64,000 nt of DNA from Candidatus Portnoybacteria bacterium (GCA_028688325.1 JAQTYI010000001.1:168820-232819), one strand, 5' to 3'. Counted from the first letter of the stretch, positions 1 to 57,423 are shown. Notes: generated from the letters alone by a model not told the origin. Translations and numbers: made by a program.

Positions 1-3000
1 GTGGAAGTGCCGAGTTTGAAAACATTATCCAAAGACGGATTGATGTCTCCGGCAAAAACCGCCGTGCCGCCATTTAAGATGCTCAAAAAAGTCGAGGTGG
101 CCGAAAGCGCGTCGGAAGAAGTGCCGATGTAAAAATTACCGCCTTGAGAGCTCAAAAACCAATGCTTGTCGTCGGCACCGGCCGAGTAGTCCGAAAGAAC
201 AAGCGAGGGACGCGTGCCGGAAATTTGCAATTTCCAATTGGGAGTGCTCGTGCCAATCCCCACATTCCCGTTGGCCGAAACCGTCAAAGTTGAAGTGGCC
301 TGCCAAGCCGAGTCCTGATAGGTCAAGGTCTGGCCTTGGGTGCCGACGGGCAAGGTGTCCACTCCTATTGTGAATAAAGTTGAGGTGCTCACCCATTCGG
401 TGGCCGAGCCGGTGGATTTGAGAATGTAGCCGTTGGCGCCGGCCGAAGACAAGCTGTCGTAGAGGCCGCCGGTCAGGGCGAAGTTGCCCGAGACCGAGAA
501 CTTCTGGTAAGGCGAGGAGGTGGCAACGCCGATGTTGCCGGTGTTGTTTATCGTCAGATAAGTTGAAGTGGCATTAAGCGCATCGGTGGAGGTGCCTATG
601 AAAAGATTGCCACCCATGGAAGAAAACAGCCAGTGCTTGTCGTTAATTCCGGCGGACATATCGGATAAAGCAAAAAATGTTTTGGTGGAAGAAGCGACCT
701 GAAAATTCCAGGCCGGAGTCGTTGTGCCAATCCCGATCGCTCCGGAAACATCAATTCTCATCCGCTCGGAGCCGCCGGTGAAAAACTTTAATTGGTCGTT
801 GTCCGCGCCGGCCGAATCTTCAGCCGTGATTTTTGTGTCCTGGTCAACATCAATCACTCCGCCCAGAGATCCCCAGGAGGAAGCGCCGTAGCCCTCAAAT
901 TGCTGGGTCTGTGAATTATAGCGAATAATGCCGCTGGTCAAAGAACCGGGCCGCTGGGCGGTGGTGCCCACGGGAATGACAAGGCCGTCTGTGGCGTCAA
1001 TATGCAAAGCGGTCTTGGGGGTGGTCGTGCCAACACCCAGATTTCCGCCGATAAGCGTTAAGTTTCCCCCCGACACCGCCAAGCCGGCTTTGGCCGAGAG
1101 CAGGCCAGAAAAAGAGCCGCCGGTGGCGGCAATGGAACCGGCGAAGGTGGAATCGGTGATGGTGGCGCCGGAGATAGCAACGCCGCTCAACTGATCAATT
1201 TTTTGCGACGACGACCAAGAATAAAAATTATTGGTGGTGTAAGAATTGCTCTGGGAGACGGCGGAACTTTGGCTGCTGCTGACCAGAGCCAAAATTTTTG
1301 TCTCCAGCGAAGCCATGTCGCTCGCCTTGGCATAGTCGCCGGGCGGCAAAACTTGCGTAATTTTTTCTATGCGCTGGACATACTGGATCGTTTGGCCATC
1401 CGGGCTGCCGACGATAATCGGCGGAAAACTCGGCTGCAACGCTTGCAATTTTTGCAAAGCGTTAATTTCGTCGTTCAAAGAAATGCTGAACTGCAATTCG
1501 TTCATTGTCACTTTTAGCTTATTGACTTCCCGGCGCATATCGTCGATGGCGATAAAATATTCTTTGTCGCCCGGCGACAAAGAGGGCATTGGCGGCGCAA
1601 CGGCGATGTGCCTGTAAAACAACGGGTCTATTTCCCGCGCCAATTGTCCGTAGTGGGTTAAATTATAAAAAACAAGAATGGCTTGGCGGCCCGCGCTGGT
1701 CGCGCTGTCGCCGGCGAATGCCAGGCCTTTGTTGATAATGCCGCCGAGATAATCCATCGCGTCCACCAAAACTTCGCCGGCGGCTTGCGGCCAAGAAACA
1801 ACCGGCTTCACCCCGTTCCAAACCGCCAGGCCGGTGTTGTTTATCGCGTCCCCGGATTTCTGGCTGATAACTAAATATTTGTCGTATGCCAGCGACGGCC
1901 ATTCCGTTATGCCGCCAAAAAAATTCCTGGCGGCCGAAGCTATTTTCAAGCTGGCGCGCGAAAAAATTTCTCCCAGATTATCTTTTGCCTGCTCGTTCTT
2001 TCTGTCCAAATTTAAATATGCGTCTTTCACGAAGGCCGGCCAGGCGGCGGCTCTGATTTCGATGTCGGCGATTTTATTTTGCGCGCCCTGGCCGGCCGAT
2101 GCGGTAAAGCCGGAAATGCTCCGTCCGGCTTCCTGAGCAAATTCAACTGCGGCCAAAGGCGCGTTCAAAATGTCGTTCAACAATAAATCCTGATTTTCAA
2201 CCGAACTGATGGAAACGGTCAATCGGCCAAACCGATGAACTGATGAATTGATGAACTGATGAATTGACTCGCCTGTTTGCTCCACCTGCCATGCTAATTC
2301 TTCTCCCGCGCCGGCCAAAGAATCGATTGCGCTCGCGCCGCCATCAACTAAAATCTCCGCTGAATTTTTTATTTCATTCTTAAATTTTTCTCCTTCTTTT
2401 TCATAAAGGCCCGCTTCGTTCTGTTCCTCCCTTTCGTAAAGGGAGGTTAGGAGGGATTTAGTATTCCATAAAACGCCGCTGATTTTTTCCGGTCCATCAA
2501 TAATTATCCTTCCCGCATTTTCCAGAACGGCTGCCGTCTTTTGAGTTATTGCTTCCTGCGCCTGCGGCAGAAACCAGGCGCCCGCCATCAGCAAAACCGT
2601 CAGCATTGCCAGCCGCAACGGCCTTAATTCCTCGCGGACCAGATGCGGCGCCACGCGCGCAATTTTCAACGCTTCTTCAAGCGCCTTGCATCTTAAATAA
2701 AATTTTATACAGGCCTCGCGCGATGCACCGGCGATTTTTTCAAAACCGGCGCCCAGCGCGGCCAGCGGCCAAAGCAGCGCCGCCAAGACCGCGAAGAAAA
2801 CTTTTCCACCCCCCTCCTTTAAATAAAGGAGGGGGGTGGAGGATTTAATTTCCTCCCTCCCCTGCAAAGGGTTCGCCTCGCTCTCGCGCAAGCGAGACGA
2901 GGAGGGTGGGGTGAGATTTAATTCTTGAACTTCCGCCGCTTCAATCTTTTTTTCACTGCCGCGTTTCTGCTCTTTGAAGTTTTGCACCCTCGCCAAATAT

Positions 3001-3356
3001 TCGTCCACCCAATCATTGGTGGTCATCCAGTTGCGGCCGATTTTTTTGGCTCGAAGTTTGCCTTGGCGCACGCGCAAGCTCAAATACTCCTGTGAATATT
3101 TAGCGCGCCTTGACGCTTCCTGCAAAGAAATGAGGCCGCCTTTCTTTTCTTTTTTGTTTTTTGCAGAAAACTGCGATTGGACCTTCGCCGAATATTCGTC
3201 CAGCCATTCCCGGGTGGTCATCCAATCCCGTCCGATCTTTTTGGCTTTTAATTTTCCCCTCCTGGCGCGCAAACTCAAATACTCCTGCGAATAAGGAGTT
3301 AACTCGCTGGCTTCCGCCAAAGAAAGGTAATTATTTTTTTGATCCGCTTGTTCCAT
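1..3356 (-). CDS. Giant partial ORF (more than 1118 aa) that continues past the window start. It has two tandem excisionase/MerR-like HTH domains at the N-terminus, hydrophobic segments, and a long extracellular-looking region with tail-fibre-like GIGTTTP/GNVGIGT repeats.
   Basis: The minus-strand frame was checked codon by codon and is open from position 3431 down to 1. The ATG at 3356..3354 gives MEQADQKNNYLSLAEASELTPYSQEYLSLRARRGKLKAKKIGRDWMTTREWLDEY; this HTH unit is duplicated about 70 aa later. Hydrophobic stretches follow (VFFAVLAALLWPLAALGAGF and LAMLTVLLMAGAWFLP). Downstream there are Ser/Thr/Gly-rich repeats such as GNLGVGTTTPKTALHIDATDGL, GAIGIGTTTPAWNFQVASS and GNVGIGTSTPNWKLQISG. 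The six-frame track missed this ORF because it runs off the window edge. Confidence 0.6.
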   Translation of the reverse strand, partial: MEQADQKNNYLSLAEASELTPYSQEYLSLRARRGKLKAKKIGRDWMTTREWLDEYSAKVQSQFSAKNKKEKKGGLISLQEASRRAKYSQEYLSLRVRQGKLRAKKIGRNWMTTNDWVDEYLARVQNFKEQKRGSEKKIEAAEVQELNLTPPSSSRLRESEANPLQGREEIKSSTPLLYLKEGGGKVFFAVLAALLWPLAALGAGFEKIAGASREACIKFYLRCKALEEALKIARVAPHLVREELRPLRLAMLTVLLMAGAWFLPQAQEAITQKTAAVLENAGRIIIDGPEKISGVLWNTKSLLTSLYEREEQNEAGLYEKEGEKFKNEIKNSAEILVDGGASAIDSLAGAGEELAWQVEQTGESIHQFINSSVHRFGRLTVSISSVENQDLLLNDILNAPLAAVEFAQEAGRSISGFTASAGQGAQNKIADIEIRAAAWPAFVKDAYLNLDRKNEQAKDNLGEIFSRASLKIASAARNFFGGITEWPSLAYDKYLVISQKSGDAINNTGLAVWNGVKPVVSWPQAAGEVLVDAMDYLGGIINKGLAFAGDSATSAGRQAILVFYNLTHYGQLAREIDPLFYRHIAVAPPMPSLSPGDKEYFIAIDDMRREVNKLKVTMNELQFSISLNDEINALQKLQALQPSFPPIIVGSPDGQTIQYVQRIEKITQVLPPGDYAKASDMASLETKILALVSSSQSSAVSQSNSYTTNNFYSWSSSQKIDQLSGVAISGATITDSTFAGSIAATGGSFSGLLSAKAGLAVSGGNLTLIGGNLGVGTTTPKTALHIDATDGLVIPVGTTAQRPGSLTSGIIRYNSQTQQFEGYGASSWGSLGGVIDVDQDTKITAEDSAGADNDQLKFFTGGSERMRIDVSGAIGIGTTTPAWNFQVASSTKTFFALSDMSAGINDKHWLFSSMGGNLFIGTSTDALNATSTYLTINNTGNIGVATSSPYQKFSVSGNFALTGGLYDSLSSAGANGYILKSTGSATEWVSTSTLFTIGVDTLPVGTQGQTLTYQDSAWQATSTLTVSANGNVGIGTSTPNWKLQISGTRPSLVLSDYSAGADDKHWFLSSQGGNFYIGTSSDALSATSTFLSILNGGTAVFAGDINPSLDNVFKLGTS

Positions 3357-3701
3357 CTGCCTTTTCTGATATCCGATATCCCGAATATTTAGAATTTTTG
3401 AGTTCGGATGTCGGATATCGCCGAATTTGATTTAATTAATTTTTACAAAATAAAAAACCCGCGAGACGATTAGTCCCCTTCGGGTTTTTCGCGAAATACC
3501 GGTTGTTTTTTTCTGTCTTTATTGTATGCTTTTTTCGAAATAGGTGTCAATGCGGATATATTGTGCGCGCAGCATATCCGATATATGCGCATCCATACAA
3601 CCGATATGATACTGAAAAATCCCCAAAACAAGCCAAAAAACGCATATTGCGACATTCGTGCATTTTTTATCTTTTTTATTCATAGAAACCTCTTCTTTAA
3701 C

Positions 3702-3710
3702 TTATCCACA
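3702..3710 (+). promoter_or_regulatory. Perfect DnaA box TTATCCACA.
   Basis: Exact 9-mer consensus. Confidence 0.5.
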
Positions 3711-3746
3711 AGCGCTTTAAAAAAATAAATATTTTTTTGCTTTGCC

Positions 3747-3755
3747 TGTGGATAA
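3747..3755 (-). promoter_or_regulatory. Perfect DnaA box (TGTGGATAA on the plus strand).
   Basis: Exact reverse-complement consensus. Confidence 0.5.
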
Positions 3756-4018
3756 AAAAATGCTTTTCTTGATAAACCGATATGCCGTTTTTTGGCTTAA
3801 AATAAGCATTTTTCGCTGTATCGGTTTTTTTATGATTTTTTATCCGATACGCCGGGCTTGACAAGATTTTAAAAAAACCTAAAATGAAAGCAGGACAATA
3901 AGTCCGGATTTCTAACAGACGGCCCCGCTTCGGCGGGGTTTTCTGTTTCACCGCGCCGAAGCTCGCAGCAATAACGGAGATGCGGAGGCGGGTTTTTCTA
4001 TTTCCGGTAAAAGTATCC

Positions 4019-4070
4019 GATGTCCGACATCCCGGATATTAAGGATCCCAAACCCCGGATGTCGGACATC
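4019..4070. repeat. GATGTCCGACATC-type hairpin repeat.
   Basis: GATGTCCGACATC-CCGGATATTAAGGATCCCAAACCCCG-GATGTCGGACATC. Confidence 0.7.
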
Positions 4071-4205
4071 ATAGAATGATACCGCTTACTTAAGATGACG
4101 CACCTCGCCGCCCTACAAATCTATCGCTTAACTATTTTCTATTGATTATAAAAACCCGCCTAATGGCGGGTTTTTGATTCTCAATTTATCGCTCTATTCT
4201 CTTTT

Positions 4206-4451
4206 TTAAAAGATATCTATCTTTCTTGCGGCCTTCTTGGCCCTGCTGCCTTCAAGCTGCCTCAGAAATGCTTCTATTTGGTCTAAGCGGTAAACTCTGT
4301 AGTTATTGCTTGGATGGCGGTATGCTTTCAACTTTCCCGCCTTATCCCAGTTGCGCAATGTCAAAGGAGTCACATGAAGAAGCTTTGCCGCATTATTTAT
4401 CATTAAATATTTCTGCATCTTTATTTTTTTCCGTTTTTTATTGATTATCAA
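4206..4451 (-). CDS. Small excisionase/MerR-like helix-turn-helix DNA-binding protein.
   Basis: The 81-aa ORF contains AAKLLHVTPLTLRNWDKAGKLKAYRHPSNNYRVYRLDQIEAFL, an HTH_17/excisionase-type motif. It sits inside the AT-rich non-coding block that carries DnaA boxes. Confidence 0.55.
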   Translation of the reverse strand: MIINKKRKKIKMQKYLMINNAAKLLHVTPLTLRNWDKAGKLKAYRHPSNNYRVYRLDQIEAFLRQLEGSRAKKAARKIDIF

Positions 4452-4508
4452 TGTTTATCAATGTTGTTTACTCTTATTTTATCTTTTTTATGATAACTGT
4501 CAATACCG

Positions 4509-4517
4509 TTATCCACA
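4509..4517 (+). promoter_or_regulatory. Perfect DnaA box TTATCCACA.
   Basis: Exact 9-mer consensus. Confidence 0.5.
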
Positions 4518-4613
4518 AAAAATACCCAAACAGCCATTCTATGCCCACACTATAAACATTGATAAAACATTTTTTAAACAACCATAAACATTCATACCAT
4601 TTTATCCTATTTT

Positions 4614-4697
4614 GATGTCCGACATCCCCCGCCTACGCCATACGGCTACGGCGGACAGGCAAATATTAATAATTTCTGATTTCGGATGTCGGACATC
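4614..4697. repeat. GATGTCCGACATC-type hairpin repeat (long loop).
   Basis: GATGTCCGACATC at 4614..4626 and GATGTCGGACATC at 4685..4697. Confidence 0.65.
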
Positions 4698-4867
4698 ATT
4701 AAATTATTCCCGCGGTTTTACCGCTCTTACCCCGCAAACCACCGTCTCGTATAACTTTGGACGCCCATTTTTTGACATTGAGTCATTGGGCATTCATTGG
4801 AAATTAGCCATTTGCCATTGGGATTTAAAAGCAAGAACGCGGGTTATTTTTATGATACTATTATACT

Positions 4868-5623
4868 ATGAGTCGCGCATCAAAACATCTCAAAGCTATT
4901 CTCAGCTGGTGCCTTGACCTTATCTTCCCCCGCTCGTGCCTGGGCTGCGGCCAAGACGGCTCCTACCTATGCCGAGATTGCCGCGACTCTCTGCCGATTG
5001 CCAGCTGCGCCAATTGCCCTTTTTGCGGCCGCCGCTCGCCCTTGGGATACGCCTGCCAAAAATGCCGCCGGCAGCATCATTCTTCTATCTCGGGAATTCT
5101 GATCGCCTCCGACTGGAATAATTTATTGCTTCGGCAAATAATTTACGAATACAAATACCGATTCGTCAAAGAGCTGGCCGATCCGCTTTCAAACCTGGCG
5201 ACAAATTTTTTAGAACGGATTGATTTTATTAAAACGCTGAGGTGCTCCGAAACCGAGATAATCGTCATTCCCGTTCCGCTGCATAAAAAACGCTTTGCTT
5301 GGCGGGGGTTCAACCAATCAGAACTGCTGGCGCAACAAATCAGTAGAAAATTTAATACGGCCGTAAATAACGACATTTTAATTCGCTCCCGCCACGCGCT
5401 TCCCCAAAGAGAGGTGGCGGATAAAAAAGCTCGGGCTGCCAACATCAAAAACGCTTTCGCGCTGTCGCCAAAATTAAATTTGAATGATGATGCCATAAAA
5501 AATAAAATTATTATTCTGGTCGACGACATCTGCACCACCGGCTCAACCTTTCAAGATTGCGCGCGGGCGCTGGCGCCGCTTAAACCCAAAGAAATCTGGG
5601 GGCTGGTCATCGCCAGAGGATAG
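4868..5623 (+). CDS. comF: ComF family protein: double zinc-ribbon followed by a phosphoribosyltransferase-like domain.
   Basis: The N-terminus has CLGCGQDGSYLCRDC...CANCPFCGRR...CQKC. The C-terminus has the PRTase motif IILVDDICTTGST. Confidence 0.75.
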   Translation: MSRASKHLKAILSWCLDLIFPRSCLGCGQDGSYLCRDCRDSLPIASCANCPFCGRRSPLGYACQKCRRQHHSSISGILIASDWNNLLLRQIIYEYKYRFVKELADPLSNLATNFLERIDFIKTLRCSETEIIVIPVPLHKKRFAWRGFNQSELLAQQISRKFNTAVNNDILIRSRHALPQREVADKKARAANIKNAFALSPKLNLNDDAIKNKIIILVDDICTTGSTFQDCARALAPLKPKEIWGLVIARG

Positions 5624-5727: not shown

Positions 5728-6051
5728 ATGAAAAAGATAAAAAGGAATCCCGAAATCGCCTGGAGAGAAGAAGAAGAGATGAGAAATAAAGTGGAAGAGA
5801 TTTTAAAACAGGGAGGAGAAACAGAAGAAGTGAGCAAAAAAGGGACCGTAACGCTTGTTTACTCTGGAGCGATGCATCAGTTGAATCTCTTGGGAGGAGA
5901 AATCTGGAAGCTATGCGACGGAACTCGGACGGAGGAAGAAATCGGAGAAGAATTATTAAAAACATTCGATGCCGAACGGGATATTATCTTAAAAGATCTC
6001 AAAGAATTCATCCTGGACCTTCAAAATAAGAAATGGCTTTTTTATGAATAA
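5728..6051 (+). CDS. PqqD-family peptide chaperone (RiPP recognition element).
   Basis: The stretch VTLVYSGAMHQLNLLGGEIWKLCDGTRTEEEIGEELLKTFDAERDIILKDLKEFILDLQNKKWL matches the PqqD fold pattern. Its stop overlaps the start of the next gene (ATGAATAA). The track ORF begins at a TTG at 5644; the ATG at 5728 is preferred. Confidence 0.65.
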   Translation: MKKIKRNPEIAWREEEEMRNKVEEILKQGGETEEVSKKGTVTLVYSGAMHQLNLLGGEIWKLCDGTRTEEEIGEELLKTFDAERDIILKDLKEFILDLQNKKWLFYE

Positions 6052-35444: not shown

Positions 35445-35472
35445 TTAACTCAACTTTGACCCGCTATCTTTT

Positions 35473-35544
35473 GGGCGTGTAGCTCAATGGTAGAGCACGA
35501 AGCTTATACCTTCGCGGTTCTAGGTTCGAATCCTAGCGCGCCCA
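35473..35544 (+). tRNA. tRNA with anticodon TAT (Ile-UAU type), flanked by a perfect 15-bp leader/trailer inverted repeat.
   Basis: Acceptor stem GGGCGTG/CGCGCCC, anticodon stem-loop CGAAG-CTTATAC-CTTCG, T-loop TTCGAAT. The flanks are GACCCGCTATCTTTT and AAAAGATAGCGGGTC. Confidence 0.6.
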
Positions 35545-35774
35545 CCCCAAAAGATAGCGGGTCAAAGCATAGCGCTGGTTCTGGGCCCGCCCTGTTAGAA
35601 ATTATTGAATAGCTTATTTTCACGCTAAAATTTATTCTGGAAATAGCTTGTTTTATTAGATTAGAAATTACTTTATAATTTCTAACAGGGTGAAAATCAT
35701 AGCGCGCGCACCGCGTAAAACCCCGCCTTAGCGGGGTCACGCAGCGCAGCCCCGTAAAAAATTAACAAAAATTT

Positions 35775-36767: not shown

Positions 36768-37817
36768 ATGTCCGCCCAGCGGCTGGACAAATTTTTACAA
36801 GAAAAGTTTCCGCAATATTCCCGCGCCTTTATCAAGGAACAGATAAAGCTCGGGAATTTTTTGGTTTACCCCGAGCAGAGCCGAGGGGTTAATGGAGAAA
36901 AAGTTAAGCCCTCTTATATTTTGCGCCAAGGCGACCAAGTCGCCTTGGCGCCGGGATTTAATTTACCCGACGCCGCGCAAATTTTACCCAATCCCGCCAT
37001 CAAGTTGGATATCATTTTTGAAAATGACGATGTTATCGTCATCAATAAACCGGCGGGATTATCAGTCCATCCGCGGCAAGACAAAAACGGCTTGCCCCTG
37101 CTTCAGGAAATAAATACGGCACTCGTTAGCGGATTGCTGGCATATTATCCGGCGATTACGGATGCGGGAGATATATTAAATCCTCCCCGGTCCTCCCTAA
37201 AGGGAGGGAGTAAAATCAGTTCCCCTCCTTTAGGAGGGGTTAGGCCAAAGGTCCTGGAAGGAGGAGATTTTTATCCTGCTAATATCCGTCCCGGCATCGT
37301 GCACCGCCTGGACAAAGACACTTCCGGCGTGATGATAATCGCCAAAAACCAAGCAAGTTTTGACTGGCTCAAAAAACAATTCAAAGAACGGCAGACAACA
37401 AAAAAATATCTGGCACTGGTCCATGGCTTGCTGAAGATTAAAGAAGGAGAGATTAAAACGCTGCTACACCGCGCAGTCTCCGACCCGACCAAACAGAAAG
37501 TCTCAAAGAACGAAGGAAAGGAAGCAATAACAGGATACAAGGTCATTAAGGAATTTAAGGGCTATTCACTGATTGAAGCCAGCCCCAAAACCGGCCGTTT
37601 GCACCAGATACGCGTGCATCTGGCGCACCTGAGCCACCCCGTGGCCGGCGATGCCAAATACGGCGATAAACGCCTGCCTATTTTGCCTGGCTTAGACCAC
37701 CAGTTCCTGCATGCCCAAGAGCTGAAAATAACCCTTCCCGGCGGCTCAAAAAAGACATTTTTTGCGCCTCTGCCGGCCGATCTGCAAGCCACTTTAGACA
37801 CCCTTGCCGGGAAGTGA
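36768..37817 (+). CDS. rluD: RluA-family 23S rRNA pseudouridine synthase (RluD-like), carrying an in-frame palindromic-element insertion.
   Basis: S4 domain (MSAQRLDKFLQEKF), VINKPAGLSVHP, and RPGIVHRLDKDTSG. An approximately 33-aa insert NPPRSSLKGGSKISSPPLGGVRPKVLEGG lies before the HRLD motif. Confidence 0.85.
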   Translation: MSAQRLDKFLQEKFPQYSRAFIKEQIKLGNFLVYPEQSRGVNGEKVKPSYILRQGDQVALAPGFNLPDAAQILPNPAIKLDIIFENDDVIVINKPAGLSVHPRQDKNGLPLLQEINTALVSGLLAYYPAITDAGDILNPPRSSLKGGSKISSPPLGGVRPKVLEGGDFYPANIRPGIVHRLDKDTSGVMIIAKNQASFDWLKKQFKERQTTKKYLALVHGLLKIKEGEIKTLLHRAVSDPTKQKVSKNEGKEAITGYKVIKEFKGYSLIEASPKTGRLHQIRVHLAHLSHPVAGDAKYGDKRLPILPGLDHQFLHAQELKITLPGGSKKTFFAPLPADLQATLDTLAGK

Positions 37818-46793: not shown

Positions 46794-48104
46794 TTATGCT
46801 TCCGCTTTCTTCTTCCTCCCCCGCTTACCTTTGGGCTTGGCTTCTTCTTTTTCCGCGATGCCTTCGTCTTTTTTGTCCGTTTTTATTTCGCCCTCATGTT
46901 CTTTGACTCCTTCGTTATTCTTCTCTCCTTCCTCTTCTTCGCCACCTTCAACTTTTCCGCCGGCCACATCAATTTTCCATTCGCTCAATTTGGCCGCCAG
47001 GCGCACATTCTGGCCGCGCTTGCCGATAGCCAGTGACAATTGGTCTTCCGGCACTTCAACCTTAGCCACTTTCTGTTCTTTGTTTGTTTCCACGCTCAGA
47101 ACTTTGGCCGGCGCCAAAGCATTGGCGATAAATTTTGCGATATCTTCATTCCATTCGATAATATCTATCTTTTCTCCGCCAAGTTCATTGATAATCGCCT
47201 GAACCCTCGTGCCTTTTTGGCCCACACAGCTCCCTATCGGGTCAACGCCCGGCTCAGTGGCAGCCACCGCTATTTTTGAGCGCGAACCCGCTTCGCGGGC
47301 GATGGCCTTAATCTGCACCGCCCCGGAAGCGATTTCCGGCACTTCTAATTCAAATAATTTCGCCAGCATCTTGGAATGGGCGCGCGATAAAATGATGTTG
47401 GGGCCGCGCACTTCCTTTTGCACTTCCAGTATCAAAACGCGCAATCGTTGGCCCAGGCGATAGCGCTCGCCCTGAATTTGCTCTTCCGGAAACAGCACGC
47501 CCGCGGTTTTGCCGATGTCAACGAACACCGCGCCCCGCTCAATGCGCTGCACGATGCCCGAAACCACCTGGCCTTCTTTGTCTTTATATTCTTCAAAAAT
47601 CGTTTCCCGTTCCGCTTCGCGGATTCGCTGGATGATGACCTGCTTGGCGGTTTGGGCCGCGATGCGGCCAAAGTCCGTCTTTGATTCCAGCCCTATCAAC
47701 AGCTCCTCGCCGACCTTAATTTTTTTCTCTATTTTCTTGGCGTCTTCTATCATAATATGTTTTTCTTCGTTGAAGCGGACTTTTTTTTCACCTTCCGCTT
47801 CATCTTCCCTCGCTTCCCTTATTTCTTCGCCCCGCTCCCGTGCGGCCTCAGCCGCCAGCCGCTCGGCTTCTATTTCCTCTTCTGTCTTGACCATGCTCTC
47901 GTCCAGCACCTGTTTGACCTGAAAAATCTTCACTCCGCCCGTGGCCAAGTCAAAAACTGCCCGAATGTTCTGGCCCTTGTGGCCGAAGTCCTTTTTATAG
48001 GCCGCGGCGATAGCAACTTCTATGGTTTCCAAAACCTTTTCCCTGGAGATGCCTTTTTCCTCGCAAATCTGGTCAATCGCCGAAGCGAATTGATGTGAGT
48101 CCAT
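46794..48104 (-). CDS. nusA: Transcription termination/antitermination factor NusA with an acidic insertion and a Lys/Glu-rich C-terminal tail.
   Basis: N-terminal domain, S1 domain, two KH domains (GSCVGQKGTRVQAIINELGGEKIDII), then a C-terminal KKDEGIAEKEEAKPKGKRGRKKK tail. Confidence 0.85.
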   Translation of the reverse strand: MDSHQFASAIDQICEEKGISREKVLETIEVAIAAAYKKDFGHKGQNIRAVFDLATGGVKIFQVKQVLDESMVKTEEEIEAERLAAEAARERGEEIREAREDEAEGEKKVRFNEEKHIMIEDAKKIEKKIKVGEELLIGLESKTDFGRIAAQTAKQVIIQRIREAERETIFEEYKDKEGQVVSGIVQRIERGAVFVDIGKTAGVLFPEEQIQGERYRLGQRLRVLILEVQKEVRGPNIILSRAHSKMLAKLFELEVPEIASGAVQIKAIAREAGSRSKIAVAATEPGVDPIGSCVGQKGTRVQAIINELGGEKIDIIEWNEDIAKFIANALAPAKVLSVETNKEQKVAKVEVPEDQLSLAIGKRGQNVRLAAKLSEWKIDVAGGKVEGGEEEEGEKNNEGVKEHEGEIKTDKKDEGIAEKEEAKPKGKRGRKKKAEA

Positions 48105-48303
48105 ATGTATGTTTTAACTTATAAAATAAGGCCCGTTTTCACGGACCCGTAAACTGCCTTATCCACACTTGGCTTTATATTATCACCCCGACTACCCGTT
48201 TGTCAATGCGTAAAATGAATAAATTCCCACACCTATGCATAGGTGTGGGAATAAAAAAGGCCCGCAATCGCGCCGCGAGCCGTAATAATACCCCTCTTCT
48301 TTG

Positions 48304-49204: not shown

Positions 49205-49337
49205 TCCGACATCCGATGTCCCAAATATTGGGCATTTTGCACCCAGGACATCGGATGTCGGAATATTGAATTTAATCTGTCGACATCCGACGACCTAAAA
49301 TTCAGAATTCTTTAATATTCGGGTTGTCGGATGTCGA
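49205..49337. repeat. Two tandem copies of the GATGTCCGACATC-type hairpin repeat.
   Basis: CCGACATCCGATGTCC-(24 nt)-GGACATCGGATGTCGG, followed by TCGACATCCGACGACC-(31 nt)-TTGTCGGATGTCGA. The first loop contains CAAATATTGGGCATT. Confidence 0.7.
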
Positions 49338-49343
49338 AAAGTT

Positions 49344-57361: not shown

Positions 57362-57370
57362 TTAAATGGC

Positions 57371-57423
57371 GATGTCCGACATCCAAAGATTAAAACGCAT
57401 TAATATTCGGGATGTCGGACATC
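57371..57423. repeat. GATGTCCGACATC-type hairpin repeat.
   Basis: GATGTCCGACATC-(27 nt, containing AATATTCGG)-GATGTCGGACATC. Confidence 0.7.

Follow-up and report, generated by a model that had tools for sequence, protein, structure and literature searches.

Introduction

MAT fibres are intertwined trimers on the surface of the predator Bdellovibrio, where they bind prey glycans (Caulton et al. 2024, PMC10769870). They feature a capping loop of the pattern V-G-G/N-pi-x-x-P-x-x-x-L, which is also a feature of S74-type phage fibres, and all 21 Bdellovibrio MATs begin with a signal peptide followed by a conserved β-rich domain of ~130 aa (Caulton et al. 2024, PMC10769870). The gene described here lies at the edge of a stretch of 64,000 nucleotides from a Candidatus Portnoybacteria bacterium (GCA_028688325.1 JAQTYI010000001.1:168820-232819; hereafter the window) and codes for a giant protein with a fibre of this kind. 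In this protein, a surface fibre of the tail-fibre/MAT-like kind with a type II anchor is joined to two winged helix-turn-helix (HTH) domains of the excisionase type in the cytoplasm; the protein belongs to a large family of the Candidate Phyla Radiation (CPR, Patescibacteria) that shares one N-terminal module.

CPR bacteria account for a large share of bacterial diversity, and the cultured ones live attached to host cells. Host recognition and gene regulation in this group are largely unknown, and the locus provides concrete candidates for host-binding proteins. Two further systems are of relevance for an HTH fold at the membrane: the HTH of RodZ binds a protein, MreB; and RacA is a MerR-like winged HTH protein tethering DNA to the membrane-associated pole.

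Architecture of the giant protein

The minus-strand frame carries no stop from 3431 to base 3 (1143 codons on translation to base 1) and is open to the window edge, in agreement with an earlier note on this DNA, which had described an unbroken frame. The first ATG of this frame is at 3356; hence, the product comprises at least 1118 aa, and its C-terminus is cut by the window edge. Since the homologue P0001 (1712 aa) aligns over 98% of the query at 38% identity (E 1e-218), the frame is a real gene and not a chance open reading frame (ORF). The whole layout—HTH region, transmembrane (TM) helix, and fibre—is common to P0001, P0002 (1845 aa), P0003 (1598 aa), and L001 (>3778 aa, a lower bound because L001 is also cut by a contig end), and all relatives stem from Patescibacteria/CPR assemblies. 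The cytoplasmic HTH pair, membrane anchor, and tail-fibre-like extracellular fibre that the earlier note had put forward are, hence, conserved in homologues. A scan of genome contigs for the C-terminus beyond the window edge gave relatives only (best 36% identity), and the exact 45-mer at the window edge had no match among metagenome contigs. The window is chromosomal because it holds 13 tRNA genes and ordinary cellular genes: comF-like and radical-SAM genes, nusA, and the genes for trigger factor, H+-pyrophosphatase, and methionyl-tRNA synthetase (metRS).

The fibre belongs to the β-helix class of MAT and phage tail fibres. The Bdellovibrio MAT Bd2133 (PDB 8OND) matches aa 756–1007 with an E value of 3.7e-9 by sequence alone, PDB 8OML matches the fibre region with an E value of 1.5e-3, and PHROG families of virion structural proteins, baseplate wedge subunits, and tail fibres match aa 717–960 (E 8e-24 to 5e-11), so that the tail-fibre or adhesin class assigned earlier to the repeats holds. 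The recurring GxxGIGTTTP motif seen earlier occurs in four copies of the form GN(I/L/V)G(I/V)(G/A)T(T/S)(T/S)P, at aa 771, 872, 940, and 1030; all four agree with the MAT capping loop, and three of them align to the capping loops of Bd2133. A composition rich in Ser, Thr, and Gly, for which more than 800 aa had been given, is limited to aa ~700–1118 (~420 aa), and residues 266–700 are rich in Ala, Leu, and Glu instead. By homology to MAT fibres, the fibre would be trimeric, and it probably mediates adhesion to a host or partner cell. Two homologues carry an intein here: in P0003, it interrupts the fibre repeats at aa ~1000–1500 (Pfam Intein_splicing, E 7e-21; GQCVTGDT...HNT boundary); and the C-terminus of P0001 is the beginning of an intein at the same GQCVTGDT motif.

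Both hydrophobic segments reported earlier are present, at aa 182–208 and aa 246–265, but only the second is conserved as a TM helix. In the alignment, the position of the first is taken in homologues by a charged LKPFxxLGxGFEKL sequence, and in the AlphaFold2 (AF2) model it starts a 50-residue helix—probably a juxtamembrane helix. The TM helix is flanked by more Lys and Arg residues on its N-terminal than on its C-terminal side (2.86 versus 1.60; p = 3e-9; 72 family members), a bias toward an N-in orientation. The family, thus, features a single TM helix between HTH region and outside domain in a ToxR-type arrangement. The region with WPxxxxxxY repeats that follows the TM helix is confined to a small subfamily consisting of P0001, P0002/L002, P0003, and L001.

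The N-terminal HTH pair

The two HTH_17/excisionase-like units of the earlier note are found again with 104.5 bits for unit 1 and 103.7 bits for unit 2, as judged by a family hidden Markov model (HMM) built on eight HTH units from the query and three homologues. The PHROG excisionase family phrog_1840 matches the HTH region of the query (E 4e-14). Among 61 non-redundant family units, 41 match Pfam HTH_17 at E < 0.01 (best E 3.7e-8); the relative P0016 passes the cut-off of this family (PF12728) with 27.5 bits, and many family members carry a precomputed PF12728 assignment.

The AF2 model of aa 1–290, based on a 25-sequence alignment, has a mean predicted local distance difference test (pLDDT) score of 82.7, with both HTH units above 90. 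Each unit features the β-α-α-β-β-α topology of a winged helix. In a Foldseek comparison with the PDB—a search that had been suggested for the HTH pair—the top match is TraN of pIP501 (PDB 4P0Z; E 2e-3, probability 1.0), and single units superpose on RdfS, Pukovnik Xis, RacA–DNA, BldC–DNA, and SoxR–DNA. Target TM-scores are 0.61–0.75 at a root-mean-square deviation (rmsd) of 1.2–2.8 Å for RdfS, Pukovnik Xis, BldC, and RacA, with Pukovnik Xis at 0.75 and 1.3 Å. Every close fold neighbour is a DNA-binding protein. A profile of the 61 HTH units run against PDB sequences gave spurious ankyrin matches only; the fold was set by structure comparison.

The family units are basic, with a mean net charge of +4.3. 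Helix 2 and the wing (YSQEYLSLRxRxGKLxAxKxGRxW) are near-invariant at a mean column identity of 63%, and the recognition helix YSQEYLSLRxRxGKL stays near-invariant even where the ectodomains are unrelated.

The earlier note had considered the design unusual; within the lineage, it is not rare. A HMMER scan with aa 1–130 over 1.84 billion cluster representatives (clusters at 50% identity) yielded 2730 proteins at E <= 1e-3, of which 844 reach E <= 1e-10; the set includes tandem-HTH proteins of 4310, 4384, 4486, and 6890 aa. A word-indexed search with aa 1–290 returned 181 proteins with many different C-terminal domains, and two peptide patterns gave 486 confirmed stretches in GTDB species representatives. 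On the basis of these three counts, the module is a lineage-typical N-terminus and not a one-off. A set of 80 CPR loci, recovered from genomes by the HTH motif, contains 88 proteins with an HTH unit, in nearly all cases close to residue 10 and with one predicted TM helix after it. The gap between the last unit and the TM helix has a median of 74 aa, and the part beyond the TM helix a median of 528 residues and a maximum of 3529. Two units occur in 13 of the 88 proteins, and the C-terminus is variable. Matches in loci labelled archaeal are soluble, with no predicted TM helix after the HTH, and several have the HTH at the C-terminus. The literature searched on this architecture in CPR contained no description of the N-terminal HTH–TM module. 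Some family members, such as P0137, combine the same HTH with a Fic domain (PF02661), and the public name "Fic protein involved in cell division" of the fibre homologue P0004, which is misleading, probably stems from this combination.

Upstream DNA and the small MerR-type neighbour

The 9-mer TTATCCACA, the DnaA-box consensus, occurs four times in the window versus 0.3 expected, with three copies within 1.2 kb upstream of the fibre gene. The 80 loci (902 kb) contain 59 perfect copies, compared with an average of 8.1 for composition-matched shuffled 9-mers; 42 of the 59 lie no more than 450 nt upstream of an HTH unit (shuffles average 0.6), and 40 of 84 HTH–TM genes have an upstream copy. Measured against intergenic DNA alone, HTH–TM genes have 39 of 54 copies close by versus 16% expected (p = 5e-20). 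Where a recognizable −35 element is present (about 17 forward-oriented cases), the layout is TTATCCACA-N9-10-TTGAC, followed by a −10-like element, one or two TATCCGATA/TATCGGATA palindromes, and the ATG. The palindromes take the forms TATCCGATA-N2-3-TATCGGATA and TATCCGATA/GATATCNGATATC. TATCCGATA is found in 136 copies in the loci, and 69 of its 97 intergenic copies are near HTH–TM genes (p = 1e-33). The association is strong in the sense that an HTH–TM gene implies the motif, but the motifs also turn up outside the family.

The counterpart of these palindromes at the fibre gene is a 13-bp arm pair (Table 1), with arms 39 bp apart start to start and the nearer one ending 12 nt before the ATG. 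Similar arm-pair elements form an intergenic family in the window, at 3366–3420, 4017–4072, 4612–4700, 49205–49262, 49280–49338, and 57370–57423. Each consists of two 13-bp arms (GATGTC-N-GACATC or GATATC variants) with AATATT beside one arm; the arm spacing is 39–40 bp start to start in five elements and 71 bp at 4612–4700. GATATCCGA occurs 37 times in the window with up to one mismatch versus 13.8 expected.

Between the box pair and the fibre gene, a promoter-like TTGACA-N18-TACAAT followed by a hairpin (CCCG..GGAC-loop-GTCYC..CGGG) and a U-tract is shared by the window, L081—the locus of the closest orthologue—and L082. Across these three genomes, whose proteins are about 40–55% identical overall, the hairpin retains its stems but differs in its loop. 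The element could act as attenuator or leader of the fibre gene, or could give rise to an RNA of its own of ~70 nt.

The gene upstream of the fibre gene codes for a small soluble MerR-type HTH protein and holds the same position in L081. For 27 of 76 HTH–TM genes, a homologue of this protein (E 1e-16 to 1e-42) is encoded no more than 1.6 kb upstream, usually divergently; the small protein is a candidate partner or regulator. The presence of TTATCCACA is independent of this neighbour (16 of 27 genes with it versus 21 of 49 without).

Function of the HTH pair

The best reading of the protein, at a probability of about 0.5, is that of a host-binding fibre with a type II anchor and, in the cytoplasm, an HTH pair that binds DNA as in ToxR. 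Outside, a predicted helical part of ~400 aa and a neck lead to a β-helix fibre with GNxGIGTTxP capping loops, which would be trimeric and whose receptor-binding tip lies beyond the window edge. By analogy, the fibre would attach to the exterior of a host or partner cell. In the cytoplasm, each chain carries two excisionase/MerR-type winged HTHs, and the pair, clustered three-fold through the trimeric fibre, would bind specific DNA at the membrane. In family promoters, TTATCCACA near position −50 and the TATCCGATA palindromes downstream of the −10 element are candidate targets, and the pair may act with, or against, the small soluble MerR-like protein of the neighbouring gene. The outcome would be auto-regulation or contact regulation of fibre genes along the lines of ToxR/CadC.

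The single parts of this reading differ in strength. Architecture, fold class, topology bias, and fibre homology are observed, as are the family's spread and its association with the cis-elements, and the fibre part is on firm ground; trimerization, host binding, DNA binding, and regulation are inferred. For DNA binding by the HTH pair, to which the net charge, the conserved cis-elements, and the fold neighbours point indirectly, the chances are about even; the upstream cis-elements together with the exclusively DNA-binding fold neighbours lean toward DNA binding rather than a non-DNA role. That the conserved promoter motifs are the targets—giving ToxR/CadC-like regulation coupled to the fibre—is a tentative proposal. 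Similarly doubtful is an extension in which the tandem HTH module, as a sequence-specific DNA binder tethered to the membrane, and the small MerR-like protein control a lineage-wide surface-gene regulon marked by TTATCCACA at ~−50 and by TATCCGATA; binding of the fibre to a host cell might here be relayed directly to transcription, possibly with DnaA co-reading the box.

Several observations weigh against DNA-binding regulation through a type II-anchored fibre. Since TTATCCACA is the DnaA-box consensus, DnaA is an obvious alternative binder, and the palindromes could form RNA hairpins or serve as operator sites for the small MerR-like protein. The motifs also occur elsewhere: five other arm-pair elements of the window are not directly upstream of an HTH–TM gene, three of them lying between housekeeping genes; and one perfect TTATCCACA (48159–48167) is located 55 nt upstream of nusA (46794–48104, minus strand) in opposite orientation. 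In metagenome contigs—a sample that says little about CPR genomes—TTATCCACA-N9-10-TTGACA has at least 121 instances with no HTH gene following and no accompanying TATCCGATA among the matches listed; the composite motif, therefore, also exists outside the family. The HTH units of the query stay below the cut-offs of Pfam HTH_17 (PF12728; 22 versus 27 bits) and TIGR01764 "excise" (19.2 versus 28.8 bits). The extra, nonconserved hydrophobic segment of the query would change the topology if it spanned the membrane. Finally, the AF2 model of aa 240–760 is unusable: it features all-helix secondary structure at a mean pLDDT of 36, too low for a conclusion on the fold of the middle region.

Other explanations concern either the gene as such or the role of the HTH pair. 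A long frame arising from two genes joined by an assembly or sequencing error is extremely improbable: the closest orthologue, in L081, is indeed split into ORFs of 416 aa and 892 aa, but the split is a frameshift within the middle region at an 8-nt tandem repeat and not at a domain border, and HTH, TM helix, and fibre are continuous in the four independent homologues P0001, P0002, P0003, and L001. A phage or prophage tail fibre in place of a cellular surface protein would go in hand with the strong PHROG matches to virion structural and tail-fibre families and with excisionase-like domains, which are typical of mobile elements, and the gene leaves the window such that one flank lies outside view. 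However, the visible flank is cellular, the comF-like gene, the small MerR gene, and the HTH–fibre gene keep their synteny in another genome (L081), non-viral fibres of such kind are known in Bdellovibrio, and a cytoplasmic N-terminal domain with a TM helix is unsuited to a virion fibre—rendering this origin very improbable. As explanations of the locus, both are, thus, unlikely.

In the main rival reading, the HTH pair would be a RodZ-like cytoplasmic adaptor that sorts, clusters, or anchors surface proteins to a shared partner and does not bind DNA, with the motifs being read instead by DnaA (TTATCCACA) and the small MerR-like protein (palindromes). One common partner would fit a near-invariant module on hundreds of unrelated ectodomains, and the match of TTATCCACA to the DnaA box, the soluble MerR-type protein encoded beside 27 of 76 such genes, and the palindrome elements at unrelated intergenic sites of the window point the same way. 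This is possible, though rather doubtful: each close structural neighbour binds double-stranded DNA, the units carry a strong positive charge, polar as well as basic residues are conserved in helix 2 and the wing, and box presence does not depend on the small MerR-like gene. A DNA tether holding chromosomal sites at the membrane under the fibres, similar to RacA and without regulatory function, is improbable. The fold neighbours include RacA–DNA, HTH–TM genes have perfect DnaA-box-like 9-mers clustered nearby, and three-fold clustering by a trimeric fibre would provide multivalent binding; yet the motifs occupy fixed promoter positions, 9–10 nt before the −35 element and just after the −10 element, as predicted by regulation and not by a tether.

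The locus belongs to a recurrent CPR design: an N-terminal excisionase-type HTH; one TM helix; and a variable, often giant ectodomain (proteins up to 6890 aa), which is a phage-tail-fibre/MAT-like fibre in the giant protein and in the homologues nearest to it. Together, the promoter layout conserved in the family and the small MerR-like gene kept in synteny form a testable regulatory circuit. If the HTH binds DNA, the family represents a class of membrane-bound regulators on a DNA-binding fold different from that of ToxR; if not, it is a new case of an HTH taken over for an adaptor role in the cytoplasm. The regulon version, if true, would mean that genome-reduced episymbionts sense contact by a system that couples a phage-type fibre to an excisionase-type HTH.

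Further features of the locus

The coordinates of all features are collected in Table 1.

Table 1. Features of the fibre gene and its upstream region in the window
Feature	Position	Strand	Basis
Giant protein coding sequence (aa 1–1118)	1..3356	-	Open frame; full-length homologues of 1598 to >3778 aa
HTH unit 1 (aa 10–58), excisionase/MerR-type winged helix	3183..3329	-	Family HMM, AF2, Foldseek
HTH unit 2 (aa 76–124)	2985..3131	-	Family HMM, PHROG, AF2, Foldseek
Perfect 17+2+17-nt palindrome TCCACCCCCCTCCTTTA..TAAAGGAGGGGGGTGGA, in frame, encoding STPLLYLKEGGG	2805..2840	.	Sequence
Hydrophobic segment 1 (aa 186–205)	2742..2801	-	Strongly hydrophobic in query only
Conserved TM helix (aa 246–265), N-in/C-out	2562..2621	-	Homologue alignment, positive-inside rule
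Ala/Leu/Glu-rich region (aa 266–654), WPxxxxxxY repeats	1395..2561	-	Composition, subfamily alignment
Conserved neck (aa 655–725: IEKITQVLPPGDYAK...YTTNNFYSW..SQKIDQL)	1182..1394	-	Invariant alignment columns, subfamily matches
Fibre (aa 726–1118), MAT/phage-tail-fibre-like β-helix	3..1181	-	PDB sequence and PHROG matches
Capping-loop motif 1 (GNLGVGTTTPKTAL)	1005..1046	-	Motif search; aligned to Bd2133 motif
Capping-loop motif 2 (GAIGIGTTTPAWNF)	702..743	-	Motif search; aligned to Bd2133
Capping-loop motif 3 (GNIGVATSSPYQKF)	498..539	-	Motif search; aligned to Bd2133
Capping-loop motif 4 (GNVGIGTSTPNWKL)	228..269	-	Motif search
13-bp palindromic arm pair (GATATCCGATATC / GATGTCGGATATC)	3368..3419 (arms 3368–3380, 3407–3419)	.	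Near-identical in L081
Promoter-like TTGACA (3550–3545) and TACAAT (3526–3521), terminator-like hairpin and U-tract (3484–3452)	3452..3550	-	Conserved in L081, L082
Two perfect TTATCCACA 9-mers, inverted orientation	3702..3755	.	Conserved in L081; family-wide association
Small soluble MerR-type HTH gene (70 aa), upstream of fibre gene	4206..4418	-	Pfam MerR, E 5e-10

Two palindromic elements had been noticed within the coding sequence, and both are present. The perfect one (2805–2840) adjoins a linker (aa 153–180) with pLDDT below 50 in the AF2 model. Its arms form a Shine–Dalgarno (SD)/anti-SD pair (CCCCTCC / GGAGGGG) in the element CCCCTCC-TTTAAA-GGAGGGG. A second copy in the window is found at 37222–37239, and palindromes of the same type stand just upstream of HTH–TM genes in four loci (L029 9760, L031 9715, L020 9742, and L082 819). 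Perfect palindromes of 24–42 nt also occur in the HTH-to-TM linker of L039 and L044, and the homologue peptides PPFIKGG and PPFLKEG resemble translations of the SD/anti-SD element. The simplest reading is a small palindromic element that is tolerated in frame only in a disordered linker; the SD/anti-SD palindromes in the 5' regions of HTH–TM genes could be hairpins sequestering the ribosome-binding site or a small mobile element. For the hydrophobic segment that follows the palindrome at 2805–2840, an internal start with a signal peptide was considered and rejected, there being no in-frame start codon past the SD-like GGAGG. The second palindrome (2034–2097) is imperfect, with 16-nt arms at 88%, and may be due to chance.

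In L081, the frameshift of the orthologue (5741–5860) sits at a short tandem repeat, GTTTATCA, present in about three copies; it stems from an assembly error or else from on/off switching by strand slippage. A block at ~3858–4000 (plus strand) of the window is about 95% identical to L081 and features TTGACA-N16-TAAAAT followed by CCCCGCTTCGGCGGGG and a T-tract, making it a candidate small RNA on the strand opposite to the fibre gene. Rfam identified tRNAs only in the window at gathering thresholds, and nothing meaningful in 3300–4900 at E <= 1. A 54-aa ORF at 3519–3683, between the box pair and the fibre gene, is probably noncoding: its differences to L081 lack codon periodicity, and the DNA motifs are conserved. 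The ORF at 46794–48104, downstream of the fourth TTATCCACA, was considered as dnaA and rejected, as it is nusA. Elsewhere in the window, a tRNA-Ile with the unusual anticodon UAU is encoded at 35472–35547; most bacteria use a lysidine-modified CAU tRNA instead.

Comparison with known systems

The MAT fibres Bd2133 and Bd3182 share with the giant protein a homologous fibre sequence and GNxGxGTxxPxxxL capping loops. Both kinds are non-viral cell-surface relatives of phage tail fibres of about 1000 aa or longer, and swappable tips and a life on other bacteria are their common ground. The giant protein differs in its N-terminus: instead of a signal peptide and a β-rich domain, it has two HTHs, a TM helix, and a predicted helical region of ~400 aa. 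Its tip and any S74 domain lie beyond the window edge.

Phage tail fibres and tailspikes with an S74 chaperone, such as T5 pb1 and K1F endosialidase, belong to the same β-helix class. Compared with these, the giant protein is cellular and membrane-anchored and lacks a virion attachment domain, and its visible part contains no S74.

The eukaryotic MyRF likewise combines a DNA-binding domain, a trimerizing β-helix of the phage-fibre type, and a membrane anchor, and the MAT capping-loop motif matches MyRF as well. Its S74 trimerization domain is phage-derived. In MyRF, no membrane lies between the DNA-binding and fibre-like domains, and the factor is freed by self-cleavage; in the giant protein, the TM helix separates the HTHs from the fibre.

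TraN of the Enterococcus plasmid pIP501 carries two excisionase-like winged HTH repeats per chain, like the giant protein, and binds double-stranded DNA, but is a small soluble protein. Its repeats are packed as an internal dimer. The repeat order agrees between both pairs, whereas the modelled packing differs (target TM-score 0.38, rmsd ~16 Å over 128 columns, at an overall predicted TM-score of 0.34).

RodZ resembles the giant protein by a cytoplasmic HTH, one TM helix, and an outside domain. However, the RodZ HTH is of the Xre type, RacA lacks a TM helix, and neither bears a fibre.

ToxR, CadC, and TcpP have the same order of an N-terminal cytoplasmic winged-helix domain, a single TM helix, and an extracytoplasmic domain, and the conserved motifs in the promoter regions of the query family are a ToxR-like trait. 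The giant protein features three differences: its HTH is of the excisionase/MerR (HTH_17) and not the OmpR/PhoB type; the HTH is duplicated; and the ectodomain is a giant fibre in place of a small sensor. Because the MAT-type N-terminus is missing and the DNA-binding fold differs from that of ToxR, the protein belongs to neither the MAT nor the ToxR family.

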